Shown here in pieces: positions 19,864 to 58,624 of a stretch of DNA of 59,312 nt. Source of the stretch: an uncultured Woeseiaceae bacterium (GTDB lineage: Bacteria; Pseudomonadota; Gammaproteobacteria; Steroidobacterales; Woeseiaceae); assembly GCA_964611535.1 (NCBI GenBank), contig CAZTAE010000001.1:1-59312 (forward strand). Reading direction: 5' to 3'. Numbering within the stretch: the first letter of the stretch is position 1; each line of letters starts with the position of its first letter. Both the position numbers and the translations under genes were made by a program. Below the pieces are notes generated by a model. It was given only the letters and a program-made list of their open reading frames with translations. It did no database searches and had not been told where the DNA came from.

Positions 19864-24992
<5,129 letters not shown>

Positions 24993-24996
<4 letters not shown>

Positions 24997-43058: not shown

Positions 43059-43163
43059 TGACAGGTCCGCCGCCTCTGCTACGGTAGCGCTACCAGTCCG
43101 CGGCGGGGGGCGTCAACCGGCCGCGGGCGGCACAACGGGCCGCGTCGGCCCCGGGAGCCCGCC

Positions 43164-44249
43164 ATGAAGCCTCTCTACCTGAGCCTGATCTGCTGCCTCG
43201 TGCTGCCCGGCTGTTCGGCGCCCCCGGACAGCGGCACGGAAGCGGTGGCGCCGGACAACCGCCCGGCGCTGAAGTCGCTGGTAGACTTCCCCATCGGCGT
43301 CGCGGTGCCGGCCGGACCCGCGGGCAACAGCCTGCTGGACAGCCCGGAACGCCAGTCGCTGGTGAACCGGCACTTCGACAGCCTCACGGCCGAAAACATC
43401 ATGAAGATGCGCTACCTGCAGCCGGAACCGGAAGCCTTCGTCCTGGAACACGCGGATGCACTGGCCGACTATGCGCAGGAACACGGCATGCTGCTCCACG
43501 GCCACGTGCTGGTCTGGCACACCCAGGCTCCGCGATGGATGAACGAGTTCGCCGGCACGCGCGAGCAGTTTCTCGCGGTGCTCGAGGACCATGTCCGCAC
43601 GGTGGCGGCACACTTCTCCGGCAGGGTCGCGAGCTGGGACGTCGTGAACGAGGCGTTCGACGATGAGGATCCCGCCGGCTACCGGCAAACCATCTGGTAC
43701 GAGAACATCGGGCCGGAGTACATCGAGCTCGCCTTTCGGCTGGCGCGCGATCAGGACCCGAAGGCCGATCTCTATTACAACGACTACGGCATCTCCGGCG
43801 GCGGGTCCAAGCTCGACCGCGTTCTCGAGATGATCGACGATTTCCGGGCGCGCGGAGTTCCGCTCGATGGCATCGGTTTCCAGATGCACATCGACACGGA
43901 AAGGCCGAGGCTCGAGGCCGTGCGCGAATCCTTCGCCCGTGCGGCCGAGCGCGGCATCAAGGTCCGGATCTCCGAGCTGGACGTTTCCGTCAATCTGGAG
44001 AGCGCCTGGTCCGAATTCACTCCGGAACTGGCCGAGCGGCAACGGCAGCGGTACGCGGACGTGGCGCGGGCGTACCGGGACAGCGTGCCTCCCGCGCTGC
44101 GGGGCGGCATTACCCTGTGGGGCATCACCGATGCGGACAGCTGGATCCCGGGGTTTCGGGATCGACCGGACTGGCCGCTGCTGTTCGACGCCGACTTCCG
44201 GGTCAAGCCCGCCTTCGACGGGCTGGCGGAGGGCCTGACCGGCCCCTGA
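43164..44249 (+). CDS. Endo-1,4-beta-xylanase, glycoside hydrolase family 10 (lipoprotein)
   Basis: 361 aa with the lipobox LVLPGCS. GH10 motifs are GHVLVWHTQAPRW, WDVVNEAF (acid/base Glu), YYNDY and ISELDV (nucleophile Glu). Confidence 0.92.
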   Translation: MKPLYLSLICCLVLPGCSAPPDSGTEAVAPDNRPALKSLVDFPIGVAVPAGPAGNSLLDSPERQSLVNRHFDSLTAENIMKMRYLQPEPEAFVLEHADALADYAQEHGMLLHGHVLVWHTQAPRWMNEFAGTREQFLAVLEDHVRTVAAHFSGRVASWDVVNEAFDDEDPAGYRQTIWYENIGPEYIELAFRLARDQDPKADLYYNDYGISGGGSKLDRVLEMIDDFRARGVPLDGIGFQMHIDTERPRLEAVRESFARAAERGIKVRISELDVSVNLESAWSEFTPELAERQRQRYADVARAYRDSVPPALRGGITLWGITDADSWIPGFRDRPDWPLLFDADFRVKPAFDGLAEGLTGP

Positions 44250-44263
44250 GGCCTGCGACGACC

Positions 44264-45331
44264 ATGGACCCCGCGCTGCCCCACGTCAGCATCGCCGAGC
44301 ACGTCACGCCGCGGACGTTTCGCGAGGAGATCGTCCCGGGCAACCGGCCGGTGCTCCTCAAGGGCGTGGTTGCGCACTGGCCGGCCGTGCGCGAGGGAAA
44401 CCGGTCACCGGAAGCGCTGGTCGCCTACGTCAGGCGCTTCGACCAGGGCAAGCCGGTGGAGACGATCCTGGGCTCACCGGACATCGACGGGAAGTTCTTC
44501 TACAACGAGCGGCTGGACGGCCTGAACTTCGAGCGCAGGCCGCAACCGGTCGGCGCTTCCGCCGAGCGCATCGTCGGGCTGCGCGGGCAGGAAAGGCCGC
44601 CGTCGATATACATCCAGTCGGCGTCCATTCCCGAATTCCTGCCGGGCTTCGCGACCGAAAACACACTGGACCTCGTCGACCCGGCGGTGGTGCCGCGCAT
44701 CTGGATCGGCAATCGTCTGACGGTACAGACGCACTTCGACCTGAGCGAAAACATCGCCTGCGTGGTAGCCGGACGCCGGCGCTTCACGCTCTTCCCGCCG
44801 GAGCAGACTCCGAACCTCTACCCGGGACCGTTCGAGCTGACGCTGGCGGGACCGCCGGTCAGCATGGTCCGGCTGGACGCGCCCGACCCGGCGGCCTACC
44901 CCCGCTTCGCCGCGGCGCTGGAGCACGCCCTGGTTGCCGAGGCGGAGCCCGGCGACGCGGTCTATATCCCCTACTTCTGGTGGCACCACGTCCGGACGCT
45001 CGATGACCTGAACGTCCTCGTCAATTTCTGGTGGAACGAGGCCGAGCCCGACCTGGGTTCGCCCTTCGATGCGCTGCTGCACGCGATACTCGCGATCCGC
45101 GACCTGCCGGAGCACCAGCGCGCCGCCTGGCGGACGATGTTCGAGCACTACGCCTTCGGCGTGAACGGCGACCCGGTGGAGCACCTGCCGCCGGCGGCGC
45201 GCGGCGCGCTGGGGGCGCACAATCCACCGATGCGGCAGAAGATCCGGATGATGCTGCTCAACGCGATCGGCCGGCAGGCCGGCCTGCGACCCGCCGGCAG
45301 GCCGCCGGCAGGCGGCCGCCGGAACGGCTGA
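44264..45331 (+). CDS. JmjC/cupin-like domain protein (putative Fe(II)/2-oxoglutarate oxygenase)
   Basis: In-frame ATG at 44264 within ORF 44117..45331, 14 nt after the GH10 stop. It has the cupin_8-like strings FREEIVPGNRPVLLKGVVAHWPA and TVQTHFDLSEN (HxD), plus the distal DAVYIPYFWWHHV (His). Confidence 0.8.
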   Translation: MDPALPHVSIAEHVTPRTFREEIVPGNRPVLLKGVVAHWPAVREGNRSPEALVAYVRRFDQGKPVETILGSPDIDGKFFYNERLDGLNFERRPQPVGASAERIVGLRGQERPPSIYIQSASIPEFLPGFATENTLDLVDPAVVPRIWIGNRLTVQTHFDLSENIACVVAGRRRFTLFPPEQTPNLYPGPFELTLAGPPVSMVRLDAPDPAAYPRFAAALEHALVAEAEPGDAVYIPYFWWHHVRTLDDLNVLVNFWWNEAEPDLGSPFDALLHAILAIRDLPEHQRAAWRTMFEHYAFGVNGDPVEHLPPAARGALGAHNPPMRQKIRMMLLNAIGRQAGLRPAGRPPAGGRRNG

Positions 45332-45394
45332 GACCGCCGGCCACGGAGACCGGCCGGTCCTCCTCCGCCTGGCAGGCGGCGCCGTCCCGCCGCG

Positions 45395-48300
45395 CTACTC
45401 GCCGAAGTAACCCCTCAGGATCAGGGTGTACCGCCGGTCGTTCATGAACCAGCTGCGCGGTGCCGTCTGCAGGTCATCGTTCAGGACCGCCGAGGTCCGG
45501 ATCGTCTCGTTGAGCAGATTCACGCCCTGCACACCCAGCTTCCACCGGTCGCTGAAGTTATAGAAGACCGACGCGTCCAGCTGCCCCGTCGCCTCGTGCA
45601 TGATCGGCTGGAACGGCACGATCACGTCGCGAATGGTCAGCAGGAACTCGTCGCGCCAGGACCAGGCCAGCCGCGCGGACCAGTTCTGGTGGTCGTAAAA
45701 CGGCGCGAGATTGACGGTGTGCCGGGACAGGCCCTCCAGCGGGAGCCTGCTGATGTCGACCACCGCCTGATTCCCGGCGGAGACGTCCGGATCCGTCTCG
45801 GACAGCGTACTTTGCGGGACGTTCTTCGAGTCGATGTAGGTGTAGTTCGCGGCCAGCCCCAGCCCGTCCAGCCATGCCGGCAGGAACTCGTAGGTCTGCT
45901 GGTACGACACCTCGAAACCCTGGATCTCGCCCTCCTCCTGCGAATTCACCGCCGTGGTGACGATGGCGTCGAACGTGGCGCCGTTGTTCGTGAACGTCTG
46001 CCGCTGCACGTCGTTCGTGCGTATGTTGGACAGGGTCTTGTGGAACAGCGCCAGGCTCAACTGTCCGACCTCCGAGAAATACCATTCGAAGGTCAGGTCG
46101 TAGTTGTCCGACTCGACCGGCTTGAGGAAGGGATTGCCCGCCTCGAAGCGGCCTATCGGCCTGCCGCCGCCGGCCACGATATCGTCGGCGTTCGTCTGCA
46201 GGTTGATGTTGTAGAAGGCGCGGGTCAGGCCGAAGTCCGGAGGCGCGACGCCCTTGAAGTACGCCGCGCGGAACTGCACGCCCTCGGCCACTTCGAGCTT
46301 CAGGTTGATGCTCGGCAGCCAGTAGTCGTAGTCGAGCTCGGCCGTGAACGGAACCATCGAGCCGTCGGCGAAGTTCCGTGCATCCTGGCGGACTTCGAAC
46401 GGCAGCCCGCAGAAGGGACTCACCTCCTGTCCCATCTCCGGGACGCAATCCTCCTCGGTAGCGAATTCCTGGAAATTGAAGACCTGGAAGCCGCTGGCCT
46501 CGCGGGTCGTCTCCGAGTAGCGGAGTCCGAGGTTGCCGGAGAGGTTCCAGCCGTTGTCGAGGATGCTGTCGAAGCTGACCATAAAGTAGGCCGCGTTGTT
46601 GGTCTCGAGCACCGGGTTGACCTCGCTCGGCAGGAACCAGCCGTCGGTCCCCGGCCGCTCGGCGAGCGGTACCCACGACGCGCTGTCGCCCCATTCCTCC
46701 GCGATGGCCATGGCATAGTCCGCGTACGCCTGGTAGTCGCCGGTGATGCTGTCGGCGTAAAAGAGCCGCCCGGAGCCTGCCAGCGGATTGGGCGTATCGC
46801 CGTCGAAGAAGTTGTCGAAGAAGAACGGCTCGAAATTCTGCACCGGCGCCTCGTCGAACCAGACGGGTCCGCCTGCGCCCCAGATCTCGCTCAGGCTGCC
46901 CCAGTTGTACGTCGAGAAGCGCGCGGTCTGATCGCGCTCGGCGTACCGGTAACCGAAGCGGATCGACTCGAGCCAGTCGCTGTCGTGCAGCAGGCGTTCG
47001 GCGTCGATGCGGATCGCATCGGAGGTCCCCTCGCTCTCCTCCACGTGGTCCATCGCCGCGCGATAGAAGGAGTTATAGGGATCGGTGAAGCTGTCGTTGC
47101 CGGCCTGGAAGTAGGTCGGGCACTGGTCCGACGGCGGGCCGTCGCAAAGTATCGGTGGCGTGAACTCGACGGTCGGCAGGTCGCTGCCGTCCATGTCGAT
47201 GCGGGCGTTCTGATAGGTCGAGCCCCAGAGCGTCACATCGAGGTTGTCGACGGTCGAGTCGACATGCTGGTAGTCGAAACTCAACGCCCAGTCCTCGCTG
47301 ACGTTCCAGATGAAGTTGAGGCCGAAGTCGTCGGTGACGAACTTCTGGTCGACTTCGCGATGGATGTTGTTGCTCTGCAGGCCGAAGATCGGCGTCCGCG
47401 GATCGGCGGTGAACTGGTCGTCCCGCCAGCCCGTGGGGCCGGTGATGAAGCCGCTGTCGAACAGCCCGCTGTCGTCGAACTCGAAGGTCGTGCCGGGCAC
47501 GGCCCGCGAATCGCCCTGGTCCGTAACGACGTCCGTGGCGATCTCGACCACCCGCTCCGTCCAGGCCTCGCGGGAGTCCGAACGCAGGAACTGGAAGGTC
47601 GCCTCCATGCGGTTGTCCGGACTGCGCCACTGCAGCGCCGCGGAATAGCCGTAACGCTCGCGATCGAACTCCTGGGTGCCCATGACGGCGCCGCGCGGGA
47701 AGATCACCGTATCGACGGGCGTCTCGCCGCCGCCGGTGTCGACGACGTCGCCGGACGAAAAGAGCGTGCGCTCGGCGAAGTTCGAGACCTGGAAACGGTC
47801 CGCCCGCGACAGCACCTGCGAGTAGACGAAACTGCCCAGCAGCCCGAACTCGCCGTAGTCGGTGTCCCACCGATAGCTACCGAGCGCGGAACCGGTGGGC
47901 GAGTAATCCTCGATGAAATCGCCGTAGTTGCCCTCCAGCGAGAAGGCGAACATCGGATCCTGGCTGTCGAACGGCTTGCGCGTCCGCAGGTTGACGGTGC
48001 CGGCGATGCCGCCCTCGATGCGGTCGGCGGAGAGGCTCTTGAAGACGTCGACGCCGACCAGGAGCTCCGGCGGGACGTCGGCGAAGCTCAGGCCCCGGCC
48101 GTTGTTGGCGGTGAAGGAATCGCGCCCGTTGACTTCGCTCCGGACGTAGGTGAGGCCGCGAACGACGACGCCGCTGCCCTCCACCGAGAAGTGATCGGGA
48201 TCGCGGCCGGCGGCGAAGCGGTTGATCGCCACGCCGGGAATCCGCTGCAGGGTTTCGGTGACGGAGCGGTCCGGGAGTGCACCGATGTCCTCGGCCGTGA

Positions 48301-48589
48301 CGGAATCCACGATGACCCCGGAGAAACGCTTGAGCGCCTGCGCCGACTCGAGGCTCCTGCGCACGCCGCGAACCACGACTTCCTCGAGCGGCTGGTCCTC
48401 GTCGGCGACCCGGAAACGGTCGTCGTCCCGGGACTCGCTGTCATCGGTGGGCGGGTCGGTATCGGTTTGCTGGGCAAACGCCGGTGTGTCGAAAGCGATG
48501 GCGCCGGCGGCCAATAACGGCAGGCTGGCGCGAATTGCGGTTGCGAGCCTGGTGCGACGCCAGGTGCGGTTGGTTACCTCGTCAGCCAT
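45395..48589 (-). CDS. TonB-dependent receptor (large, carbohydrate-locus type)
   Basis: 1064 aa with a signal peptide (LPLLAAGAIAFDTPAFAQQ). Plug motifs are LEEVVVRGVRRSLESAQ and VTETLQRIPGVAINR. A long beta-barrel ends in ...YTLILRGYFGE. Confidence 0.92.
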   Translation of the reverse strand: MADEVTNRTWRRTRLATAIRASLPLLAAGAIAFDTPAFAQQTDTDPPTDDSESRDDDRFRVADEDQPLEEVVVRGVRRSLESAQALKRFSGVIVDSVTAEDIGALPDRSVTETLQRIPGVAINRFAAGRDPDHFSVEGSGVVVRGLTYVRSEVNGRDSFTANNGRGLSFADVPPELLVGVDVFKSLSADRIEGGIAGTVNLRTRKPFDSQDPMFAFSLEGNYGDFIEDYSPTGSALGSYRWDTDYGEFGLLGSFVYSQVLSRADRFQVSNFAERTLFSSGDVVDTGGGETPVDTVIFPRGAVMGTQEFDRERYGYSAALQWRSPDNRMEATFQFLRSDSREAWTERVVEIATDVVTDQGDSRAVPGTTFEFDDSGLFDSGFITGPTGWRDDQFTADPRTPIFGLQSNNIHREVDQKFVTDDFGLNFIWNVSEDWALSFDYQHVDSTVDNLDVTLWGSTYQNARIDMDGSDLPTVEFTPPILCDGPPSDQCPTYFQAGNDSFTDPYNSFYRAAMDHVEESEGTSDAIRIDAERLLHDSDWLESIRFGYRYAERDQTARFSTYNWGSLSEIWGAGGPVWFDEAPVQNFEPFFFDNFFDGDTPNPLAGSGRLFYADSITGDYQAYADYAMAIAEEWGDSASWVPLAERPGTDGWFLPSEVNPVLETNNAAYFMVSFDSILDNGWNLSGNLGLRYSETTREASGFQVFNFQEFATEEDCVPEMGQEVSPFCGLPFEVRQDARNFADGSMVPFTAELDYDYWLPSINLKLEVAEGVQFRAAYFKGVAPPDFGLTRAFYNINLQTNADDIVAGGGRPIGRFEAGNPFLKPVESDNYDLTFEWYFSEVGQLSLALFHKTLSNIRTNDVQRQTFTNNGATFDAIVTTAVNSQEEGEIQGFEVSYQQTYEFLPAWLDGLGLAANYTYIDSKNVPQSTLSETDPDVSAGNQAVVDISRLPLEGLSRHTVNLAPFYDHQNWSARLAWSWRDEFLLTIRDVIVPFQPIMHEATGQLDASVFYNFSDRWKLGVQGVNLLNETIRTSAVLNDDLQTAPRSWFMNDRRYTLILRGYFGE

Positions 48590-48620
48590 GCCTCGTCCCC
48601 CACGAAAGCTGCTTCAAACG

Positions 48621-48697
48621 CGTTAACGTTACCGCTAACATACCCAATACTAGCTGCAGAACTTGCCATGTCAAGCGCCTCGTTGACAACGTTATCA
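48621..48697. promoter_or_regulatory. Two 14-bp near-palindromes with AACGTT core in the low-GC divergent promoter region (candidate LacI-family-type operators)
   Basis: CGTTAACGTTACCG (48621-48634) and TGACAACGTTATCA (48684-48697) are each palindromic except for one symmetric pair. They share the core AACGTTA. They lie in the locally AT-rich 230-bp gap between the receptor and the first halogenase-like gene. Confidence 0.3.
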
Positions 48698-48819
48698 TCG
48701 GGAGCCTCGCCGCAGCCGGGCCGCGCGGGTACGATGGGACCGAAACGACCGCCGGACGCGGCCTCAGGCCGGGCTCCGGCAAGCGCTGTCCGGCGTCGCG
48801 GACACCAGGGGGAAGCCGT

Positions 48820-50334
48820 TTGCCGCCTACCGACACATCATCCTTGCGCGTACTGATCGTCGGCGGCGGCACGGCGGGCTGGATGACGGCCGCCGCGCTG
48901 TCGCAGCTGCTGCCGCCCGGGCTGGCGGCGATCCGGCTGATCGAATCGGCGGCGATCGGCACGGTCGGCGTCGGGGAAGCCACGGTGCCGCACATCCGCT
49001 TCTTCAACGCCCGGCTCGGCTTCGACGAGGCCGATTTCATGGCGAAGACGCGCGCGACCTTCAAGCTCGGCATCGAATTTCGCGACTTCTCGCGCCGCGG
49101 CGACTCCTATATCCACCCGTTCGGCGCATTCGGCCGCGACCTTGCGGGCGTCCTGTTCCATCAGCACTGGGTCCGAGCGTGCCGCGCGGGCCAGGCCGGC
49201 GCGCTCGAGCAGTATTCCCTGCCGATACTCGCGGCACGCGGCGGCCGCTTCGCCCATCCCGCGGAGGATCCCGCCTCGCCGCTCTCCACGTACTCCTACG
49301 CCTACCAGTTCGACGCCGGGCTCTACGCCGCCTACCTGCGCGCCTATGCGGAGGCCCGCGGCGTCCACCGCACCGAAGGCAGGATCGTCGACGTCAGCGC
49401 GAGCGGCAACGGCTTCGTCGAGGCGGTGACGCTCGAGACCGGCGAGCGCATCGAAGCCGATCTCTTCATCGACTGCTCCGGTTTCCGGGGCCTCCTGATC
49501 GAGCAGACGCTGAAGGCAGGTTACGAGGACTGGACCCACTGGCTGCCCTGCGATCGCGCCTGGGCAGTGCCCTGCCCGACCCGCGGTCCGCTGACGCCCT
49601 GCACACGAGCGACGGCAAGCGACGCCGGCTGGATCTGGCGTATTCCGCTGCAGCACCGCGTCGGCAACGGGCACGTGTATTCCAGCCGCTACCTCGACGA
49701 CGACGAGGCATTGGCGGCGCTCCTCGGGCAGCTCGAGTCACCGCCCGGGGCGGAGCCGAAGCAGCTGCGCTTCACCCCCGGGAAACGCCGCAGGCAGTGG
49801 TCGGGCAACGTCGTGGCAATCGGACTGTCGGCCGGTTTCCTCGAGCCGCTCGAGTCGACCAGCATCCACCTCATACAGCTTGCCATCGGCTACCTCGTCG
49901 ACCTGTTTCCGGACCGGGAATTCGATCCCATGAACGAGACCGAATTCAATCGCGTCATGGCTCTCGAATACGAACGCATCCGCGACTTCCTCGTCCTGCA
50001 CTACCACGCCACCGAGCGCGACGACACGCCGTTCTGGCGCTACGTCAGGACCATGGACATTCCGGATTCCCTCGCCTGGCGCATCGAGCTTTTCCGCGGG
50101 CGCGGCGTGGTGCCGCATTACCGCGAGGGCATGTTCCTGGACGCAAGCTGGCTCGCGGTGCTGTTCGGCCAGCACGTGATGCCGCGGCACTACGATCCCT
50201 CCTCGGACCGGGTCTCCGGAGACGAGCTGGCCCGCCACCTGCAGGCGATCCGCGGCGAGTATCGGGAAGCGGTGGCCACGATGCCCGAACATCAGGCCTT
50301 CCTGCAGCGCATCGGCGCGGACCGGGCGGCATGA
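48820..50334 (+). CDS. Flavin-dependent tryptophan-halogenase-family protein, paralog 1
   Basis: ORF 48484..50334. The likely start is the in-frame TTG at 48820, preceded by GGGGGAAG (or TTG 48844). Motifs: [84 protein letters not shown]. No signal peptide. Confidence 0.85.
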   Translation: MPPTDTSSLRVLIVGGGTAGWMTAAALSQLLPPGLAAIRLIESAAIGTVGVGEATVPHIRFFNARLGFDEADFMAKTRATFKLGIEFRDFSRRGDSYIHPFGAFGRDLAGVLFHQHWVRACRAGQAGALEQYSLPILAARGGRFAHPAEDPASPLSTYSYAYQFDAGLYAAYLRAYAEARGVHRTEGRIVDVSASGNGFVEAVTLETGERIEADLFIDCSGFRGLLIEQTLKAGYEDWTHWLPCDRAWAVPCPTRGPLTPCTRATASDAGWIWRIPLQHRVGNGHVYSSRYLDDDEALAALLGQLESPPGAEPKQLRFTPGKRRRQWSGNVVAIGLSAGFLEPLESTSIHLIQLAIGYLVDLFPDREFDPMNETEFNRVMALEYERIRDFLVLHYHATERDDTPFWRYVRTMDIPDSLAWRIELFRGRGVVPHYREGMFLDASWLAVLFGQHVMPRHYDPSSDRVSGDELARHLQAIRGEYREAVATMPEHQAFLQRIGADRAA

Positions 50335-50344
50335 GGAGGTCTCG

Positions 50345-51880
50345 ATGAGCGAAGGCGAGAACGTCCGGCCCCTGCAGCGACGCATCGTGATCGTCGGCCA
50401 CGGGCTCGCCGCCTGGATGGCTGCCGACGCGCTCGCACGCGCGGTCAGGCGTGAGGACTGGTCCCTGCGCGTCGTCGCCGACCGTGCAACCGACGAGCCG
50501 GAGCCGTTCGAGATCGCCGACACCACGCTGCCGCTTGCCGACGGCATCCACTTCGCGCTCGAGACGGACGAGGATCGGCTGGTCGCCGGCACCGGCGGCT
50601 CGTTCACCGTCGGCATTGCGCTCGCCGGCTGGTCCGCGCCGGGCGCCGCCTGGTTCCATCCCTTCGGGTCGGCCGGCGCAAACCTGGGTCCGGTCGCCTT
50701 TCACCATGTCCTGATGCGGCTGCGCACCGAAGGCGCCGCGCTGCGGCTCGCGAACTTCTCCCTCGCCGCGCTCGCCGCGCAGGCGGGGCGCTTCTCGCGG
50801 CCGGCGGACGAGCCGCAGTCGGTGCTCTCGACACTCGCCTACGGCCTGCACCTCGACTGCCGCCGGCTGGCGGACGTGCATCGCGCCTCGGCGCTATCCG
50901 CGGGTGTTGCGCTGGAGGAGGCGGACCTGGCGCGCGTGGAGCGGCGTCGCGACGGATCGATCGCCGCCCTGGTCGGCACCGACGAGCGGCGCATCGAGGC
51001 CGACCTGTTCCTCGATTGCACGGGCAGCGCAGCGCGGCTCGACGGAAACGAAGGCGCCGATTGGGAAGACTGGTCGCCGTGGCTGCGCTGCGACCGGGCG
51101 ATCTCGATCGCGAAGGAGGACGCGCAGCCGCCCCCGCCCTACAGCCTTGCGGCGGCGAACGACTCCGGCTGGCTGCGGCACGTGCCGCTGCAGGGCAGGA
51201 GCGTACTGACGGCGACATGGTCGAGCGAGCACGCGAGCGATGACGAGATGCGCGCTCTTCTCGCGAACACAGCCGGCAACGAGGTCGCACAGCCGCCGCG
51301 GCGATTGCGCTTCGGCCGTCGGCGAAACCCGTGGCAGGGGAACGCCCTGGCGCTCGGTTCCGCCGCCGCGCTCATCGACCCCGTCGCCACGAGCAACCTG
51401 CAGCTTCTGCGCACCGGGATCGACCGCCTGCTGCGCCTCCTCCCCGGCAGCTCCGGGTTCGGCGTGGAAGCCGCGGAATACAACCGGCAGGCGGCGCTGC
51501 ATCTCGACAATGCCCGCGACTTCGCCGTCCTGCATTACCGGCTGAACGGCAGGAAGAACGAACCCTTCTGGGACGCCTGCCGCCACCGCGAGCTGCCTGC
51601 CTCGCTGGAGTACCGGATGCGCCTGTACGAGAGCCGCGGGCGCGTGGCCCTGTACGACGAGGAACCGCTCGAAGCGGAGAGCTGGATAGCGCTCTTCGAC
51701 GAATGCGGTGTCCGGCCGCGGCGCTACCACCCGATCGCGGACGGTTTCCCGAGAGCCCATCTGGAGGCGCACGTCGAGCGGGTGCGCGCCATCATGATCG
51801 AGGCGCTGGCGCGGATGCCGTCGCACGGCGACTACCTGTCGCGCCTGCAGCCGGCGAAGAAGGCGGCGCAAGGCGGATGA
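50345..51880 (+). CDS. Tryptophan-halogenase-family protein, paralog 2 (motif-degenerate)
   Basis: 511 aa, alignable along its length to the other three paralogs ([24 protein letters not shown]). The hallmark motifs are changed: [57 protein letters not shown]. Confidence 0.8.
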
Positions 51881-53409
51881 GCGAAGCAAGACGCACGGGG
51901 GACGCCGCCGGGGCGGCCCGCATCCGCAGCATCGTCATCGTCGGCGGCGGCACGGCCGGCTGGATGACGGCGGCCGCGCTCGCGCAGGTGCTGGGGCGCG
52001 ACTACGCCAGCATCAAGCTCATCGAATCGGACGCCATCGGCACGGTGGGCGTCGGCGAGGCCACGATCCCGCAGATCGGGATCTACAACCGCCTGCTGGG
52101 CATCGACGAGAACGACTTCGTGCGCCGCACGAAGGGCAGCTTCAAGCTCGGCATCGAGTTCGTGAACTGGCGGCGGCCCGGGCACCGCTACATCCACCCC
52201 TTCGGCAGCTACGGCGTCAACATGGAGGGCGTGTCCTTCCATGCCTTCTGGCAGCGCCTGAATCACGCGGGGCTCGCGGCCGACGCCGCGGATTATTCGC
52301 TGATGGCGACCGCGGCGAAGCGCAACCGCTTCATGCGCCCCTTCGACGCCGGGAACTCGCCGTTGTCCTCCATCGCCTACGCCTTCCATTTCGACGCGGG
52401 ACTCTATGCGCTCTTCCTGCGCGACCACGCCGAAGCGCGCGGCGTCATCCGCCGCGAGGGCAGGATCGTCGACGTGCACCAGCGAGGCGAGGACGGCTTC
52501 ATCCACTCCGTGCAGATGGAGGACGGCGAGCGCATCGAGGGCGACCTGTTCATCGACTGCTCCGGCTTCCGCGGCTTGCTGATCGAGCAGACGCTGCACG
52601 CCGGGTTCGTCGACTGGTCCGGCTGGCTGCCCTGCAACCGCGCGCTGGCCGTGCCCTGCGAGAGCGTGCCGGAGCTCACCCCCTACACGCGCTCGACCGC
52701 GCTCACGGCCGGCTGGCAGTGGCGCATCCCGCTGCAGCATCGCATCGGCAACGGCTACGTCTATTGCAGCGACTATCTGAGCGACGACGAGGCGGCCGCG
52801 ATGCTGCTCGCGAACCTGGACGGGCCGGCGCTGAAGGAGCCACGCCTCATCCGCTTCACCACCGGTCATCGGAGGAAGTACTGGGACAAGAACTGCGTCG
52901 CGATCGGCCTCGCCTCCGGCTTCATGGAGCCGCTGGAGTCGACGAGCATCTGGATGATCCAGAACGGCATCTCGCGCCTGCTGTCGAACTTCCCCGACCG
53001 CAGCTTCGCGCAGATCGACATCGATCGGTACAACCGGGTGCTCATCGAGGACACGGAGTACATCCGCGACTTCCTGATCCTGCACTACAAGGCGACCGAG
53101 CGCGACGACACGCCTTTCTGGAACTACTGCAGAAACATGCCCGTTCCGGAGCGCCTGGAGGAGAAGATCCGCGTATACAAAAACAGCGGCCGCACCTTCC
53201 GCGAGCACGAGGAACTCTTCAACGACACGAGCTGGTTTGCGGTCATGACGGGGCAGCTGGGCCGGCCGCGGACCTGGGATCCGGTCGCGGAGATCCTGAG
53301 CCTCGAGGAAACGCAGAAGCGGCTGGACCACATCCGGAGCGCCGTCTCGAACTCCGCCGACTACATGCCCGACCACCGCAAGTTCATCGAGGAAAACTGC
53401 GCGGCCTGA
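51877..53409 (+). CDS. Flavin-dependent tryptophan-halogenase-family protein, paralog 3
   Basis: In-frame ATG at 51877 within ORF 51331..53409, overlapping the paralog-2 stop as ATGA. Motifs: [87 protein letters not shown]. Confidence 0.9.
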
Positions 53410-53431
53410 CGCGCCGGACACGAGGATAGCC

Positions 53432-55285
53432 ATGAACCTTCCCCCGCGAATCCTTTGCTGCCTCCTGATCCCGGCCTGTACGACCTCGCCGACCGGGACG
53501 ACCGCGCCAACGGCGGACGCCGCTTGCGACGCCGGCATTCACCTGAACCAGGTCGGCTTCCTGCCGGGCGCCGCGAAGCGCGCGGTGATCGCGGCCCCGC
53601 AGGACGCAGCGCGGCGCTGGGAACTGGTCGATGCCGGGGGCAACGTGCTCGCCGAGGGCGCCTCGGCCGTCTATGGCGAGGATGCCGTCTCGGGCGAGCA
53701 TGTGCACCGCGTCGACTTCAGCGAAGTCGACGCGACGGGCGAAGATCTGCGCATCCGCTCGACCTGCGCCGAAAGCCACCCGTTCGACATCGGCGAGGAG
53801 GTCTTCGGGCGACTGAAGTACGACGCTCTGCGCTACTTCTATCACAACCGCAGCGGTGTTCCCGTCACGGCCGAGCATGCCGGGGGTGCGCGCTGGGCCC
53901 GGCCCGTCGCGCACGAAAAGGAAGTGGCCACCTGCCGCTCCGGTACCGACGGCGACGGCAACGACTGGCCGGGTTGCGACTACACGCTCGACGTCACCGG
54001 CGGCTGGTACGACGCGGGCGATCACGGCAAGTACGTCGTCAACGGCGGCATCAGCGTGTGGACGCTGATGAACCTGTTCGAACGGCAGCGCCTCATGGAG
54101 CGGAACGGGCTGGGTGACAGTGGAGCCCGCATTCCGGAGTCCGGCAACGGTATCGACGACGTGCTGGACGAGGCGCGCATCGAAATGGAGTTCCTGTTAC
54201 GGATGCAGGCGCCGCCGGAGGCGATCGCGCAGGTCCCGGTCGGCGTCAAGCGGAGCAGCGAAAAGCTCGAGTTCGCCTCGATCGACGCATCGGGCATGGC
54301 GCACCACAAGGTCGCCGACGAGAGCTGGACGCCGCTGCCCATGCCCCCGCACCTGAGCCGCGAGCGGCGTGTCCTGTACCCTGTCAGTACGGCGGCGACG
54401 CTCAACCTCGCGGCCACGGCGGCGCAATGCGCGCGCATCTGGCGTGGCCTGGACGACGCCTTTGCCGAGCGCTGCCTGTCCGCTGCGGAACGCGCGTATG
54501 CTGCTGCCCGGCGCAACCCGGAGGTCTATTTCGTAGCCAATTTCAGCGGCAGCGGCGCGTACGGCGACGGCGACGTTTCCGACGAGTTCTTCTGGGCAGC
54601 CGCCGAGCTGTTCGCGACGACGGGCGAGGAGCGTTACCGGCAGGCGCTCATGAGATCGGAGCACTTCCAGGGGCCGCTCGCCCGGCAGCCGGGCTGGCCG
54701 CGCGTGGCGCCGCTCGGCGTCATCACGCTGGCGCTGGTACCGAGCGACCTGCCGCCGCCCGAGGTCGAGCGGCAGCGCGAGCGGCTGATCGCCGCCGCCG
54801 AGGGGTTCAACGCCGAGCGCGAGGAGACGGGCTACTACATCCCCTACGCCACCGACCGCTATCCCTGGGGCTCGAACAGCAGCATCCTGAACCGGGCCAT
54901 CGTGCTCGCGCTCGCTTACGACTTCACCGGTGACGCGCGCTACCGTGACGGTGTCGTGGACGCGATGGACTACCTGCTCGGCAGGAATCCCCTCGACCGT
55001 TCGTACGTGAGCGGCTACGGCGAGCGTCCGTTCGAAAACCCGCATCACCGCTATTGGGCGCAGTCGCTGGACGCCGCACTCCCCCCGCCGCCCCCGGGCG
55101 CCCTCTCCGGCGGCCCCAACTCGACGGCTCCGGCCGACGAGGTCGCGCAGGAGATCGCGGGATCCTGCGCGCCGCAGACCTGCTGGCGCGACGACGTGCG
55201 CGCCTACGCGCTGAACGAGGTCGCCATCAACTGGAACGCACCGCTGGTCTGGGTGGCGGCCTTCCTGGACGAAGGCGCGCGGTGA
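53432..55285 (+). CDS. Glycoside hydrolase family 9 endoglucanase (lipoprotein, with N-terminal Ig-like domain)
   Basis: 617 aa with the lipobox-like LLIPACT. The N-terminal region is CelD_N-like (IHLNQVGFLPGAAKRAVI). GH9 signatures are GGWYDAGDHGKYVVNGG, SYVSGYGERPFENPHHRYW and GALSGGPN. Confidence 0.9.
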   Translation: MNLPPRILCCLLIPACTTSPTGTTAPTADAACDAGIHLNQVGFLPGAAKRAVIAAPQDAARRWELVDAGGNVLAEGASAVYGEDAVSGEHVHRVDFSEVDATGEDLRIRSTCAESHPFDIGEEVFGRLKYDALRYFYHNRSGVPVTAEHAGGARWARPVAHEKEVATCRSGTDGDGNDWPGCDYTLDVTGGWYDAGDHGKYVVNGGISVWTLMNLFERQRLMERNGLGDSGARIPESGNGIDDVLDEARIEMEFLLRMQAPPEAIAQVPVGVKRSSEKLEFASIDASGMAHHKVADESWTPLPMPPHLSRERRVLYPVSTAATLNLAATAAQCARIWRGLDDAFAERCLSAAERAYAAARRNPEVYFVANFSGSGAYGDGDVSDEFFWAAAELFATTGEERYRQALMRSEHFQGPLARQPGWPRVAPLGVITLALVPSDLPPPEVERQRERLIAAAEGFNAEREETGYYIPYATDRYPWGSNSSILNRAIVLALAYDFTGDARYRDGVVDAMDYLLGRNPLDRSYVSGYGERPFENPHHRYWAQSLDAALPPPPPGALSGGPNSTAPADEVAQEIAGSCAPQTCWRDDVRAYALNEVAINWNAPLVWVAAFLDEGAR

Positions 55286-56790
55286 CGGACGACCGCATCG
55301 AGCACGTCGTCATCGTCGGCGGCGGGACGGCCGGCTGGATGGCCGCCGCGGCACTGTCGCGCTTCCTGAGGAACGGCTACACGAAGATCACACTCGTCGA
55401 ATCGGAAGACATCGGCACCGTCGGTGTGGGCGAGGCGACGATTCCGCCTATCCGCCAGTTCCTGGAGATGCTGCGCATCGACGAGAACGACTTCGTCCGG
55501 CATACCCGGGCGTCTTTCAAGCTCGGCATCGAGTTCGTGGACTGGACGCGGCCGGGGCATCATTACCTGCACCCCTTCGGCCAGTTCGGCGCGGACATCG
55601 AGGGCGTGCCTTTCCACCAGTTCTTCCTCAAAGGGCACGCGCTGGGGCAGGCGCCCTCCATCGAACCGTTCGCCCTGACGGCGGCGGCAGCGCGCAGGGG
55701 CCGCTTCGACGCCGCGCAGGGCACCGCGTTTCCGCGCAATCACTGGGCCTACGCGTATCACTTCGACGCGGCGCTCGTGGCGCGCTACCTGCGGCGGTAC
55801 GCCGAGAAACTCGGCGTCCGCCGCCGCGAGGGCAGGATCGTCGACGCGGTGCTGCGGGGGACCGACGGGCTGATCGAGGCAGTCGTGCTCGAGCACGGCG
55901 GGCGTATCGAGGGCGATCTCTTCATCGACTGTTCCGGCTTTCGCGGCCTGCTCATCGGCGAGGCCCTCGGCGTCGGCTACGAGGACTGGACCCGCTGGCT
56001 CCCCTGCGACCGCGCGGTCGCCGTGCCGTCGGCGAACGTCGACCTGCACGAGCCGTATACGCGCTCGACCGCCCGCCCCGCCGGCTGGCAGTGGCATATC
56101 CCCTTGCAGCACCGCACCGGCAACGGCTACGTGTACTCGAGCCAGGCGATCGGCGATGACGAGGCCGCCGCAACGCTTCTCGACAACCTCGGCGGCGAGG
56201 CGCTCGCCGAACCGCGGCGCCTCTCGTTCACCACCGGCCGGCGTGACCGGTTCTGGTCGGGCAACTGCGTGGCGCTCGGGCTCGCCGCAGGCTTCCTCGA
56301 GCCGCTGGAATCGACAGCGATCCACCTGGTCCAGTCGGGCATCTCGAAGCTCCTCGCCCTCTTCCCCGGCAAGACGCCCAGCCCGGCCGAGATCGAGGAG
56401 TACAACCGCCTGGTCGGGGCGACCTACGAGCAGGTGCGCGATTTTCTCGTACTGCACTACAAGGCCACCGAGCGCGACGACTCGCCGTTCTGGGACTACT
56501 GCCGCACGATGGACGTGCCCGAGTCGCTGGTGCACAAGATGTCCCTGTTCGCCGGCCGCGGCCGGTGCTTTCGCTACGAGGACGAGCTGTTCTCCGTCAC
56601 GAGCTGGGTGGCGGTGCTGCTCGGCCAGAACGTGTGGCCCGCCGGCTACGACGCCATCGTCGACTCGATGACCGACGCGGAGCTGCTCGACGTGCTGGCG
56701 AAGATGCAGGCGAAGATCGAACAGACCGCCGAGGCCCTGCCGACGCAGCAGGCGTACATCGGCCGCCACTGCGCCGCGCCGAGCGCATGA
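55282..56790 (+). CDS. Flavin-dependent tryptophan-halogenase-family protein, paralog 4
   Basis: In-frame GTG at 55282 within ORF 55054..56790, overlapping the GH9 stop as GTGA. Motifs: [87 protein letters not shown]. Confidence 0.9.
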   Translation: MTDDRIEHVVIVGGGTAGWMAAAALSRFLRNGYTKITLVESEDIGTVGVGEATIPPIRQFLEMLRIDENDFVRHTRASFKLGIEFVDWTRPGHHYLHPFGQFGADIEGVPFHQFFLKGHALGQAPSIEPFALTAAAARRGRFDAAQGTAFPRNHWAYAYHFDAALVARYLRRYAEKLGVRRREGRIVDAVLRGTDGLIEAVVLEHGGRIEGDLFIDCSGFRGLLIGEALGVGYEDWTRWLPCDRAVAVPSANVDLHEPYTRSTARPAGWQWHIPLQHRTGNGYVYSSQAIGDDEAAATLLDNLGGEALAEPRRLSFTTGRRDRFWSGNCVALGLAAGFLEPLESTAIHLVQSGISKLLALFPGKTPSPAEIEEYNRLVGATYEQVRDFLVLHYKATERDDSPFWDYCRTMDVPESLVHKMSLFAGRGRCFRYEDELFSVTSWVAVLLGQNVWPAGYDAIVDSMTDAELLDVLAKMQAKIEQTAEALPTQQAYIGRHCAAPSA

Positions 56791-56803
56791 GGTCGACGTA
56801 CCG

Positions 56804-58624
56804 GTGACGCCCGTGCCCGGAATCGCTCTGCTCGCCGCGCTCCTGCTGGCGGCGGCCGCGGTCGCCGCCACCGAGGCGCCCGAAGCCGACCTGATCCAGC
56901 ACCCGCAGGCTCGCGAGCACCTGAACCTCGACGGCGACTGGCACGTCATCCCGGATCCTTACGAAAACGGCTACTACAACCACCGCTACGAGCCGCGCAC
57001 GGACGGCTACTTCGAGGCCCGCCGTCACAGCGATCCCACCGAGCTCATCGAGTACGACTTCCGGCGCTCTCCGACGCTCACCGTGCCCGGCGACTGGAAC
57101 TCGCAGGACGAGCGCTGGCTCTTCTACGAGGGAACGATGTGGTACTTCCGCACCTTCGACGCAGAGCCGGAACCCGGCCGGCAATACCTGCTGCATTTCG
57201 GCGCCGTCAACTACCTCGCGCACGTCTGGATCAACGGCGAATACCTCGGCCGCCACGAAGGCGGCTTCACGCCGTTCCAGTTCGACGCCACGGCCGCGCT
57301 CGAGGCGGGGGAGAACTTCGTCGTCGTCAAGGCTGACAACCGCCGCGAAGCCGACCGCGTGCCGGCGCTCAACACCGACTGGTGGAACTACGGCGGCATT
57401 ACCCGCGCGGTACGGCTCATCGACCTGCCGGAGCATCACGTAGCCGACTGGCGCATGGGTCTGGACCAGGACGGCGCCGTAGCAGGCTGGGTGCGCGTCG
57501 CCGGCGCGCCGGACCGCGGCCCGGTCACGGTCGACATTCCAGCGCTTGGCTTGAGGCAGGAGCTCGCCGTCGATGCGGACGGCTATGCCCGCTTTGTCTT
57601 CGATCTGGAGCCGGAACGCTGGAGTCCCGGCGATCCCGTTCTGTACGACGTGCGCCTCTCCTACGCCGGCGACGCTGTCCGTGACCGAATCGGCTTTCGC
57701 AGCCTTGCCGTGGAGGGCGAGGACATCCTGCTGAACGGCGAGCCGGTGTTCCTGCGCGGCATCAGCATCCACGAGGAGGCGCTGTTGCACCCGGGGCGGG
57801 CGTGGAGCACCGAGGATGCCCGCGCGCTGCTCGAGCAGGCGCTCGCGCTCGGCTGCAACTTCGTGCGTCTCGCACACTACCCGCACAACGAGAACATGCT
57901 GCGCGTCGCGGACGAGATGGGTCTCCTGGTGTGGGCGGAGATTCCCGTCTACTGGACGATCGACTTCGAATCGCCCGCCGTGCTCGCGAAGGCGCGCCAG
58001 CAGCTCGACGAGATGATCGCCCGCGACGCGAACCGCGCCTCCGTGGTCCTGTGGTCGCTGGCGAACGAGACGCCGGTCGGCACGGCGCGGCTGGCTTTCA
58101 TTGAAGAACTCGCCGCGCACGTACGCCGCCTCGACCCGAGCCGGCTCGTCACCGCCGCCCTCGACACCCAGACCGCAGAGGACTTCCGGCGCATCATCGA
58201 GGACCCGCTGGCCGACACCATCGACGTCATCGGCATCAACAGCTACTGCGGCTGGTACGGCGACAGGCCACCAGACTGCGCCCGCTTCCGGTGGGTCTCC
58301 GACTACGGCAAGCCGATCATCATGAGCGAATTCGGCGCCGGCGCTCTCGCGGGACAGCATGGCGACCCGACGCATCGCTGGACGGAGGAATACCAGGCCG
58401 CGGTTTACGAGCACAACCTGCGCATGATCGATGAAATCGAGGCGCTTCGCGGACTGTCGCCGTGGATCCTCAAGGACTTCCGCTCGCCCCGCCGGCCGCT
58501 GCCGGGCATCCAGGACTTCTGGAACCGCAAGGGGCTGCTGTCCGAGACCGGCGTGCGCAAGAAGGCGTGGTACGTGCTGCGCGACTACTACCGCGCCAGG
58601 GAAGGCCGGCGACGCGAGCAATAG
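56804..58624 (+). CDS. Glycoside hydrolase family 2 enzyme (beta-glucuronidase/beta-galactosidase-like), secreted
   Basis: 606 aa with a signal peptide (IALLAALLLAAAAVAA). GH2 sugar-binding strings are WYFRTFD, VNYLAHVWINGEYLGRHEGGFTPFQFD and VVKADN. The TIM barrel carries WSLANETP (acid/base Glu) and IIMSEFGAGA (nucleophile Glu). Confidence 0.88.
   Translation: MTPVPGIALLAALLLAAAAVAATEAPEADLIQHPQAREHLNLDGDWHVIPDPYENGYYNHRYEPRTDGYFEARRHSDPTELIEYDFRRSPTLTVPGDWNSQDERWLFYEGTMWYFRTFDAEPEPGRQYLLHFGAVNYLAHVWINGEYLGRHEGGFTPFQFDATAALEAGENFVVVKADNRREADRVPALNTDWWNYGGITRAVRLIDLPEHHVADWRMGLDQDGAVAGWVRVAGAPDRGPVTVDIPALGLRQELAVDADGYARFVFDLEPERWSPGDPVLYDVRLSYAGDAVRDRIGFRSLAVEGEDILLNGEPVFLRGISIHEEALLHPGRAWSTEDARALLEQALALGCNFVRLAHYPHNENMLRVADEMGLLVWAEIPVYWTIDFESPAVLAKARQQLDEMIARDANRASVVLWSLANETPVGTARLAFIEELAAHVRRLDPSRLVTAALDTQTAEDFRRIIEDPLADTIDVIGINSYCGWYGDRPPDCARFRWVSDYGKPIIMSEFGAGALAGQHGDPTHRWTEEYQAAVYEHNLRMIDEIEALRGLSPWILKDFRSPRRPLPGIQDFWNRKGLLSETGVRKKAWYVLRDYYRAREGRRREQ

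Follow-up and report, generated by a model that had tools for sequence, protein, structure and literature searches.

The DNA examined here is a stretch of 59,312 nucleotides from an uncultured Woeseiaceae bacterium (contig CAZTAE010000001.1 of assembly GCA_964611535.1), and the whole of it is referred to below as the window. It carries four paralogous genes of the tryptophan halogenase family, named H1 to H4, which lie beside the gene for a TonB-dependent receptor (TBDR) and among genes for glycoside hydrolases (GH). Gene identities were assigned from the list of open reading frames (ORFs) in the window and from a Pfam scan covering about 40 of these ORFs. The features of the locus are as follows.

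43083..43094, no strand: perfect 12-bp palindrome GGTAGCGCTACC, a candidate XylR-type operator, about 70 bp 5' of the GH10 gene
43164-44249, + strand: GH10 xylanase (Pfam Glyco_hydro_10, 9.2e-97)
44264-45331, + strand, within the ORF 44117-45331: JmjC-type cupin (Pfam Cupin_8, 6e-66)
45395-48589, - strand: TBDR of 1064 amino acids (Pfam Plug and TonB_dep_Rec_b-barrel; TIGR01782)
48622..48639, no strand: overlapping degenerate palindromes GTTAACGTTACC and GTTACCGCTAAC, a candidate operator in the divergent intergenic region between the TBDR gene and H1
48647..48674, - strand: sigma-70-like promoter (TTGACA, 16 nt, TAGTAT) facing the TBDR gene, a match to the consensus only (10 of 12)
48820-50334, + strand: H1, an intact flavin-dependent halogenase of the position-1 orthologous group (Pfam Trp_halogenase, 2.8e-192)
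50345-51880, + strand: H2, a paralog lacking the catalytic Lys, of the position-2 orthologous group (Pfam Trp_halogenase, 8e-106)
51877-53409, + strand: H3, an intact flavin-dependent halogenase (Pfam Trp_halogenase, 9.9e-194)
53432-55285, + strand: GH9 glucanase with an N-terminal Ig-like CelD_N domain (Pfam) and a signal-like N-terminus
55282-56790, + strand: H4, an intact flavin-dependent halogenase (Pfam Trp_halogenase, 6.3e-190)
56804-58624, + strand: GH2 glycosidase, beta-glucuronidase/galactosidase-like (Pfam GH2 N-terminal, central and C-terminal domains)

The Pfam scan confirms the four paralogs, the GH9 and GH2 genes, the 1064-amino-acid receptor, the GH10 gene and the JmjC-type cupin where a preliminary description of this DNA had put them. 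That description also recommended a search with the Trp_halogenase profile (PF04820), which all four paralogs match far above the cut-off of 21 bits (640 bits for H1, 355 for H2, 645 for H3 and 632 for H4), with about positions 1 to 457 of the 458 in the profile covered. Translation of H1 begins at a TTG codon that is preceded by GGGGGAAG, and that of H4 at a GTG codon. For the cupin gene, the likely start is the ATG at 44264, 14 nt past the GH10 stop codon, and these two genes are probably co-transcribed. The GH9 protein has a CelK-like NCBIfam match under the model cut-off, and the GH2 protein matches the NCBIfam beta-glucuronidase model with 239.7 bits, under its cut-off of 544 bits. Hydrophobic N-termini of signal-like or lipoprotein-like character can be read from the sequences of the GH10, GH9 and GH2 proteins, with that of GH10 (MKPLYLSLICCLVLPGC) resembling a lipoprotein.

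The genes from H1 to GH2 form a compact run on the + strand, with gaps of 10, 22 and 13 nt and two overlaps of 4 nt each, one between H2 and H3 (ATGA) and one between the GH9 stop codon and the start of H4 (GTGA). A scan found no terminator-like site between the genes of this run; the terminator and promoter scans perform at chance level and mark no operon boundaries. The short gaps and overlaps, together with the lack of an intergenic terminator-like site, suggest that H1-H2-H3-GH9-H4-GH2 is likely a single operon, as was supposed when co-transcription of the halogenase genes with the GH9 and GH2 genes was first put forward. The four halogenase proteins have 10–21 residues ahead of the GxGxxG motif, which leaves no space for a signal peptide. 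Because a signal peptide is missing from each of them, the proteins are probably cytoplasmic, and the earlier placement of these enzymes in the cytoplasm is thus a probable one.

Genes typical of halogenated natural-product pathways are missing, as had been stated before: among the roughly 40 window ORFs scanned there is no nonribosomal peptide synthetase (NRPS), polyketide synthase (PKS), carrier protein, flavin reductase or tryptophan-pathway gene. The receptor matches the TonB-Xanth-Caul model TIGR01782 with 702.8 bits (cut-off 310) and reaches 25.9 bits with the siderophore-receptor model TIGR01783 (cut-off 223.5). A TBDR of the TonB-Xanth-Caul class that is accompanied by GH10, GH9 and GH2 genes has the TBDR-plus-degradative-enzymes composition of a carbohydrate-utilization (CUT) locus. 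We found no sugar transporter and no LacI/GntR regulator gene from 43 kb to the end of the window at 59.3 kb, which lies about 700 bp past the GH2 gene. Since an inner-membrane transporter and a regulator are lacking, the term "partial CUT locus" is appropriate. The region is a xylose/xylan-type carbohydrate-utilization locus of a Woeseiaceae-like gammaproteobacterium, and it is centered on an outer-membrane transporter of the TonB-Xanth-Caul class.

To which branch of the halogenase family the paralogs belong is apparent from comparison of H3 with all PDB sequences (phmmer). The strongest matches are 9luq (1.8e-159), which a fold search names as a halogenase of Pseudoalteromonas sp. L11 and which is about 60% identical to H3 in the printed alignment, BrvH (7e-149) and Xcc4156 (3e-148). 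In contrast, PrnA, RebH, PyrH, Thal and BorH give values from 1e-76 to 1e-90, with 2.9e-90 for the best tryptophan halogenase. The alignment of H3 to most tryptophan-type enzymes (PrnA, RebH, Thal and BorH) breaks off around residue 436 of 510 and does not reach the substrate-specific part. In all four paralogs, substrate-loop regions 1 and 2 (26–27 and 23 residues) are as short as those of BrvH, and a comparison of loop lengths revealed in none of them the tryptophan-binding loops that close over free tryptophan. The signature motifs of "group C", which includes BrvH and the Xcc enzymes, have been tabulated (PMC8269204); the window motifs ATVPHI, ATIPQI and ATIPPI as well as HPFGA, HPFGS and HPFGQ correspond to the group C entries and not to those of tryptophan halogenases. 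Judged from these sequence comparisons, H1, H3 and H4 are members of the BrvH/Xcc4156 group C clade of indole halogenases, and all four paralogs belong with this clade, not with the PrnA/RebH-type enzymes. The family assignment in the preliminary description therefore stands, but the closest kin are BrvH and Xcc4156 rather than the PrnA/RebH-type enzymes to which it had compared them. A placement among tryptophan 5-, 6- or 7-halogenases with a retained tryptophan pocket, which it had considered, is contradicted by the BrvH-side matches and the short loops. A likeness of the halogenases to QhpG, LodB and CmlS was rejected, with matches far under the cut-offs, and is a weak lead only.

What is known of the clade bears on the likely substrate. 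Its enzymes, several of which have been crystallized and assayed, refuse free tryptophan and have a solvent-exposed catalytic Lys (PMC5945002, PMC7336383). BrvH weakly brominates indole (2.5 mU/mg; PMC5945002), and the Xanthomonas enzymes brominate model substrates only, although their habitat offers little bromide (PMC7336383). For Xcc4156-type enzymes, peptide substrates have been proposed, with MibH cited as a model (PMC7336383). The open active site thus suggests a substrate bulkier than free tryptophan. Glycans are poor substrates for halogenase chemistry, and the solved relatives suggest a bulky aromatic or peptidyl compound instead (PMC7336383, PMC5945002).

The residues needed for halogenation are found in three of the four proteins. 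H1, H3 and H4 have the GxGxxG and WxWxIP motifs, the Lys equivalent to K79 of PrnA and the Glu equivalent to E346. VGGGTAGW is common to all three, whereas the remaining motifs vary: GVGEATIP in H3 and H4 is GVGEATVP in H1, SFKLGIEF in H3 and H4 is TFKLGIEF in H1, GWQWRIP of H3 is GWIWRIP in H1 and GWQWHIP in H4, and FLEPLEST in H1 and H4 is FMEPLEST in H3. The earlier statement that these paralogs keep every hallmark is accordingly correct, but the motif strings quoted for it are a composite of the three proteins. Among 135 intact family members from three proteobacterial classes, the Lys, the Glu, WxWxIP and the flavin adenine dinucleotide (FAD) motifs are each kept in at least 90%, which argues for selection on halogenase chemistry.

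For comparison with the window, 80 related loci were collected in one scan of a species-representative genome collection, and 78 of them contain a halogenase gene. These loci, designated by L numbers, come from Woeseiaceae, Sphingomonas, Caulobacter, Asticcacaulis, Lysobacterales, relatives of Cellvibrionaceae, Alteromonadales and many Burkholderiales. Their ORFs were called and clustered, antisense shadow ORFs were dropped, and recurrent families were named by Pfam. The nearest homologues of H3, with 80–88% identity, are found in Woeseiaceae metagenome bins.

H2 differs from its neighbors in a manner that is shared with proteins from other loci. Its Lys is replaced by Thr, WxWxIP by WLRHVP (within GWLRHVP) and Glu by Asp (LIDPVATS), and it has GxGxxA; H2 lacks the halogenase motif set and is a member of the family by fold and profile only. 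Across the related loci, about 23 of 158 family members are without the Lys and WxWxIP, and these are never solitary and mostly stand second in the run. A search with H2 yielded 234 homologues at E ≤ 1e-10, of which 60 (40–91% identical to H2) were aligned. None of the 60 has Lys at the catalytic position, which is occupied by Thr in 31, Ser in 23, Gly in 3, Ala in 2 and Val in 1; Arg replaces the second Trp of WxWxIP in 51 of them, and Asp replaces the Glu in 52. The subfamily has kept GxGxxA and DLFxDC(T/S)G, and its own conserved motifs include EYNR and RGRVxLYDEE. The AlphaFold2 model of H2 (pLDDT 92.1, pTM 0.91) superimposes on BrvH, 9luq and Xcc4156 with TM-scores of 0.89–0.93 at 29–35% identity. 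Accordingly, H2 is a maintained protein with a complete fold, and it probably still binds a dinucleotide. The alignment places it in a conserved Lys-less subfamily, and it is more than a weaker copy of its neighbors. With the Lys, the second Trp and the Glu lost, the established mechanism rules out halogenation by H2, which most likely serves H1, H3 and H4 as a non-catalytic or differently catalytic partner.

The order of intact and degenerate genes is itself conserved. In the 12 loci with four co-directional halogenase genes that were compared, the arrangement is intact, degenerate, intact, intact. For 44 of the 48 cassette genes, the best match elsewhere sits at the same position, although part of this agreement stems from pairs of closely related loci. 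Mean identities between loci are 58, 33, 56 and 57% for positions 1 to 4. A neighbor-joining tree, built without support values, separates a position-1 group from two other groups of intact genes and has the degenerate copies on long basal branches. H1 groups with position-1 genes from other loci, H3 with Sphingomonas position-4 genes and H4 with position-3 genes. Therefore, the last two cassette genes seem to be swapped in Woeseiaceae. The identities of H3 to the matched genes of L003 to L007 (68–72%), which are the last or sole halogenase genes there, agree with such a swap. The four genes represent four old orthologous groups; they are neither recent duplicates nor a natural-product pathway. 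This cassette travels with a receptor of the TonB-Xanth-Caul class through alpha-, beta- and gammaproteobacteria. A separate observation concerns locus L024 of Paraglaciecola aquimarina, in which eight halogenase-family genes form two opposed runs around one TBDR gene. Five of the eight are flagged as lacking the catalytic Lys or WxWxIP, and at least one of these resembles a truncated ORF. L024 is an extreme expansion of the cassette.

Halogenase and receptor genes lie close together in the related loci. TBDR genes account for 26.5% of the genes adjacent to a halogenase gene, 8.9% of those at distance two and 0.7% (3 of 439) of those at a distance of at least five. Among 45 adjacent pairs, the TBDR gene is upstream on the same strand in 35 and divergent, as in the window, in 8. 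A TBDR like that of the window occurs in 57 of the 78 loci and a type with a carboxypeptidase-regulatory domain in 6, and these two sets may overlap. The link to TonB receptors mentioned in the preliminary description is thus real and general across three proteobacterial classes (alpha, beta and gamma).

Other neighbors of the receptor-halogenase pair point to diverse glycans. The most frequent families are GH13 (28 of 78 loci), LacI (25), MFS (20), DUF6445 (17), ABC sugar permeases (15) and Cupin_8 (14), followed by GH3 (11), glucokinase (10), GH31 (9), esterase (9), GH10 (8) and GH15-like proteins (8). GH9, GH43, GH67 and GH97 are found in 5 loci each and GH2 in 4. No NRPS, PKS or siderophore family is present among the recurrent neighbor families of the 78 loci, and neither SapC nor a flavin reductase appears among the top 25 Pfam families for 111 unlabelled neighbor ORFs of the 80 loci. 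SapC has no match in the window either.

Two layouts can be distinguished. In the first, a single intact halogenase gene lies directly 3' of the TBDR gene, in starch/maltodextrin loci (with GH13, GH31 and glucokinase) and in beta-glucan loci. In the second, to which the window belongs, three or four halogenase genes stand beside the TBDR gene, frequently accompanied by Cupin_8 and DUF6445, and most of these loci are of the xylan/cellulose kind, with GH10, GH67, GH43, GH9 and GH3. The Woeseiaceae locus L001 has the gene order of the window, including the GH9 gene between the third and fourth halogenase genes, and a GH9 gene is found at or near the cassette in L001, L003, L004, L006 and L014. 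A specific tie to plant cell walls or lignocellulose, as suggested in the preliminary description, is not borne out, because the same TBDR-halogenase pair is found in starch/maltodextrin and beta-glucan loci. For the same reason, a step in the use of xylan or lignocellulose is unlikely to be the general role. Two ORF families without a Pfam match were also seen. One of about 421 amino acids lies mostly just 5' of the TBDR gene in starch loci (7 loci; e.g., L034:4917-6182 on the + strand), and in 8 loci, mainly of Sphingomonas, one of about 488 amino acids is encoded between the TBDR gene and the first halogenase gene (e.g., L010:8293-9759 on the + strand). Both families may be further cassette components or artefacts of gene calling in high-GC DNA.

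Operator-like palindromes of the xylose type flank the locus and suggest that it may be under xylose control. The perfect palindrome GGTAGCGCTACC, which we take to be the core operator sequence of the xylose regulon in Caulobacter and Xanthomonas, is the sole zero-mismatch copy in the window. Related TBDR/halogenase loci contain this sequence or one-mismatch forms of it. A regulator gene of the LacI/XylR type was not found in the window. In the divergent intergenic region, GTTACCGCTAAC (48628-48639) lies just downstream of the promoter-like site facing the TBDR gene, and it is one base off GTTAGCGCTAAC, which is present at the equivalent spot in L001. The degenerate box is a three-mismatch match to the consensus and is not significant alone in the window. 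Of 16 related loci checked, 11 have boxes with at most two mismatches in or close to the divergent TBDR-halogenase intergenic region. A conserved palindrome precedes xylose-induced TBDR genes in Caulobacter and Xanthomonas, and the Xanthomonas receptor XCC2828 is induced by xylose, xylan and arabinose (PMC1790865).

The solved proteins closest to the JmjC-type cupin encoded after the GH10 gene are JMJD5, FIH and JMJD7 (1e-19 to 1e-15), all of them protein hydroxylases, and the cupin sequence displays HxD and a distal His. The cupin is therefore predicted to be an Fe/2-oxoglutarate hydroxylase. DUF6445, a protein of about 265 amino acids, ranks second in frequency among the non-glycan partners of the receptor-halogenase pair and is often encoded beside Cupin_8 (e.g., L013:11506-12303 on the - strand). 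It is absent from the window, and no sequence match to it was found in the PDB.

These observations can be joined in a reading to which we give an even chance: the cassette is an accessory of receptor-based uptake rather than of any single glycan, and its substrate is a bulky aromatic or peptidyl compound. H1, H3 and H4 would operate in the cytoplasm with FADH2 supplied by a reductase encoded elsewhere, as is the case to be expected from characterized relatives. With O2 and halide they would form hypohalous acid, which the conserved Lys would steer onto an electron-rich aromatic ring, and the open site would admit a substrate larger than free tryptophan. The cassette and the adjacent JmjC-type hydroxylase would probably share an aromatic or peptidyl substrate that is not a carbohydrate. 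The sequences show the gene identities, the motif status of the paralogs, their clade, the conserved neighborhood with its receptor linkage across glycan types, the four orthologous groups and the operator-like palindromes; co-transcription, xylose control, cell location, chemistry and the nature of the substrate are the parts of this reading that we infer.

Several points weigh against this reading. No experiment links any member of the BrvH/Xcc4156 clade to a receptor or to glycan use, and the in vitro activities of the relatives are very low and were obtained on surrogate substrates (PMC5945002, PMC7336383). The Cupin_8 partner is encoded in only 14 of the 78 loci, which means that a joint pathway cannot hold for all of them. 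Nor do the loci share a candidate substrate gene: when small ORFs were clustered after masking of the halogenase and TBDR genes, the largest family outside known genes spanned only 3 loci, a result that also led us to reject a locally encoded precursor of the kind that gives rise to ribosomally synthesized and post-translationally modified peptides (RiPPs). About 70 of the 72 TBDRs of the TonB-Xanth-Caul class in Xanthomonas campestris are without a halogenase, so that a receptor of this class does not generally need one. Xylose control in the window is indicated by one perfect and one degenerate box. Finally, H2 might be a monooxygenase or a flavin carrier instead of the partner subunit that we suppose it to be.

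Other explanations account for parts of the same evidence. In the preliminary description, the halogenases were read as a cytoplasmic step tied to imported glycan or lignocellulose-derived material; in a more specific form, this step would act on aromatic decorations of plant cell-wall glycans, such as feruloyl or coumaroyl groups on xylo-oligosaccharides, or on lignin-derived phenolics. Phenols are good substrates of flavin-dependent halogenases, the locus of the window is of the xylan/cellulose kind, as are those of about a dozen relatives (with GH10, GH67, GH43 and GH9), the four-gene cassette is concentrated in such loci, and xylose-type operator boxes are present. We nevertheless consider this explanation unlikely: single halogenase genes of the same family lie directly 3' of TBDR genes in starch/maltodextrin and beta-glucan loci, whose substrates are without aromatics, no esterase or aromatic-catabolism gene is conserved with the cassette, and a halogenated nutrient makes no obvious catabolic sense. 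There is a rather slim chance that the halogen chemistry has been lost in vivo and that these are regulatory, sensing or structural proteins or plain flavin monooxygenases, with the bromination by their relatives being vestigial. Such a loss would fit the very low turnover of BrvH (PMC5945002) and the restriction of the Xanthomonas enzymes to bromination despite the scarcity of bromide (PMC7336383), and the conserved Lys-less paralog demonstrates that the fold persists without halogenase residues. It is opposed by the conservation of the Lys, Glu, WxWxIP and FAD motifs in the 135 intact relatives.

The cassette could also modify a protein of the uptake system or another cellular protein by tryptophan halogenation and JmjC hydroxylation, in a complex that includes H2; the receptor precursor and a TonB-like protein are among the possible targets. 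The open active site and the peptides proposed as substrates (PMC7336383) agree with this idea, as do the kinship of the cupin with protein hydroxylases, the tight coupling of the halogenase genes to the TBDR gene, the TonB-like gene that follows the halogenase gene in the XCC3963-3967 cluster, and the existence of four conserved, non-redundant orthologous groups. It is likewise an unlikely account, as we know of no halogenated protein of the bacterial envelope, most receptors of the class are without the cassette, the complex is without direct evidence, and the matches to QhpG and LodB, flavoproteins that modify protein-bound tryptophan, fall far under the cut-offs. Very improbable is the proposal of Iyer et al. 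(2010), in which halogenases, JmjC enzyme and TonB receptor cooperate to produce a halogenated, amino-acid-derived, siderophore-like metabolite and to take it up again. That proposal was drawn from the same conserved neighborhood (PMC2938197), and clusters of a receptor with tailoring enzymes are typical of siderophore systems. However, the receptor scores far above the cut-off of the TonB-Xanth-Caul model and far under that of the siderophore model, and no NRPS, PKS, carrier, exporter or iron-regulated gene is found in the window or among the recurrent neighbors, which are glycoside hydrolases, sugar transporters and LacI/GntR regulators. Moreover, xylose induces the related receptor of Xanthomonas, which is absent from the receptors reported to be Fur-regulated (PMC1790865). 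We reject the siderophore explanation because the receptor class and the neighboring genes contradict it, and a natural-product cluster of this kind is largely refuted by the same two features.

The halogenase search of the protein database returned at least 8000 proteins at E ≤ 1e-20, and it is routine to take the thousands of "tryptophan halogenase" genes of environmental and plant-associated proteobacteria as potential for halogenated natural products. The comparison of loci indicates that many such genes encode accessories of sugar-uptake receptors, and annotation and surveys of the halogen cycle should treat them differently. The native substrate of the BrvH/Xcc4156 clade is an acknowledged gap in halogenase enzymology; experiments could start from the close linkage to the receptor, from the xylose-type control and from the cassette, with its four conserved groups and its Lys-less member. 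A further proposal, to which we assign a small chance, is that three halogenases, a Lys-less flavin-binding partner and, in many loci, a JmjC hydroxylase are subunits or sequential components of a conserved machine dedicated to the receptor, which would halogenate and hydroxylate a protein or peptide that is part of TonB-dependent glycan uptake or under its control. If this is true, then enzymatic halogenation would be part of nutrient acquisition in common environmental proteobacteria, not of secondary metabolism.

Elsewhere in the window, several other gene groups were observed. Directly upstream of the GH10 gene and divergent from it lies an ORF of 743 amino acids (40827-43058, - strand) with a strong coding signal and no Pfam match, and its sole NCBIfam match, to fused MFS/spermidine-synthase proteins, is weak. 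At the window edge, directly after the GH2 gene, a small ORF (58769-59236, - strand) encodes an HNH endonuclease domain. An ORF of 1739 amino acids (19864-25083, - strand), which combines a GH77 4-alpha-glucanotransferase (MalQ-like) with an alpha-amylase-family domain, is the first member of a glycogen/trehalose cluster. The cluster extends to about 36405 and includes GH13 with CBM48 and DUF3459, a GlgX-like protein, a TreS-maltokinase fusion, GlgE and GlgB. Between 9504 and 17588 there is a cluster resembling those for D-hydroxyproline/opine catabolism, with a DAO oxidoreductase, a small 2Fe-2S protein, a Pyr_redox_2/BFD protein, an Nramp-like transporter, DUF885, a DHDPS-family enzyme and a LysR regulator. 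Next to this cluster are genes for another TBDR, shorter than the first (5626-8004), for DPP-IV and for an amidohydrolase, and peptidases are also encoded in the rest of the window.

The association of halogenase and TonB receptor genes is not new. The preliminary description said that annotators had noticed it; the association does exist, but it has been in print since 2007 and 2010. Blanvillain (2007) recorded the co-location of halogenase and carbohydrate-type TBDR genes in Table S3 (PMC1790865), and Iyer, Abhiman, de Souza and Aravind (2010) described a neighborhood of JOR/JmjC, tryptophan halogenase, TonB receptor and SapC genes (PMC2938197). A full-text literature search found no functional study of the receptor-halogenase link, its substrate or its role in vivo, in keeping with the earlier statement that neither a substrate nor a role in glycan use has been established. 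The pairing is old, widespread and already reported, and the window provides one more example from an uncultured marine-sediment lineage.

In Xanthomonas campestris, the genes from XCC2828 (TBDR) to XCC2825 (tryptophan halogenase, three genes downstream) are a conserved partial CUT locus, and a second cluster (XCC3963-3967) encodes a TBDR, a SapC-related protein, a Pass1-related protein, a halogenase and a TonB-like protein (PMC1790865, Table S3). The partial CUT loci of this species are conserved in Caulobacter and marine gammaproteobacteria (PMC1790865). Like the window, the Xanthomonas loci cluster a carbohydrate-type TBDR with a halogenase and a Pass1/JmjC-type cupin and have xylose-type regulation. 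They differ in having one halogenase gene per locus, whereas the window has four, is without SapC and has GH9 and GH2 genes interleaved. The neighborhood of Iyer et al. (2010), in which a JmjC enzyme and a TonB-class receptor accompany "one to three" halogenases in alpha- and gammaproteobacteria, is also similar: the window combines JmjC/Cupin_8, halogenase and TonB receptor genes, and this combination recurs in related loci. However, SapC is absent from the window, and neither the Lys-less paralog nor the four orthologous groups appear in that paper, whose siderophore-like prediction is at odds with the receptor class and the glycan-degrading neighbors found here.

Among characterized enzymes, BrvH (Brevundimonas sp. 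BAL3, 6frl), Xcc4156 (X. campestris, 6y1w) and 9luq share the FAD, Lys, WxWxIP and Glu motifs and the short loops with the window proteins. These relatives were studied as isolated biocatalysts regardless of genomic setting. BrvH has a second halogenase gene directly upstream (PMC5945002); the window, unlike those studies, presents a complete four-gene cassette that includes the Lys-less member. PrnA, RebH, PyrH and Thal share the fold, the Pfam family, the FAD box and the catalytic Lys and Glu but are far more distant, and the window is without the tryptophan loops and motifs and without a biosynthetic cluster. MibH, a lanthipeptide tryptophan halogenase that is 26% identical to Xcc4156 (PMC7336383), is the precedent in the superfamily for a peptide-bound tryptophan in place of the free amino acid. 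In contrast to the window cassette, which has no conserved small ORF, MibH belongs to a RiPP cluster with a precursor peptide. Beyond the two earlier reports (PMC1790865, PMC2938197) and the papers on the clade, the present comparison adds a quantified context of multi-glycan uptake, a cassette of four lineages and a conserved Lys-less lineage within it.

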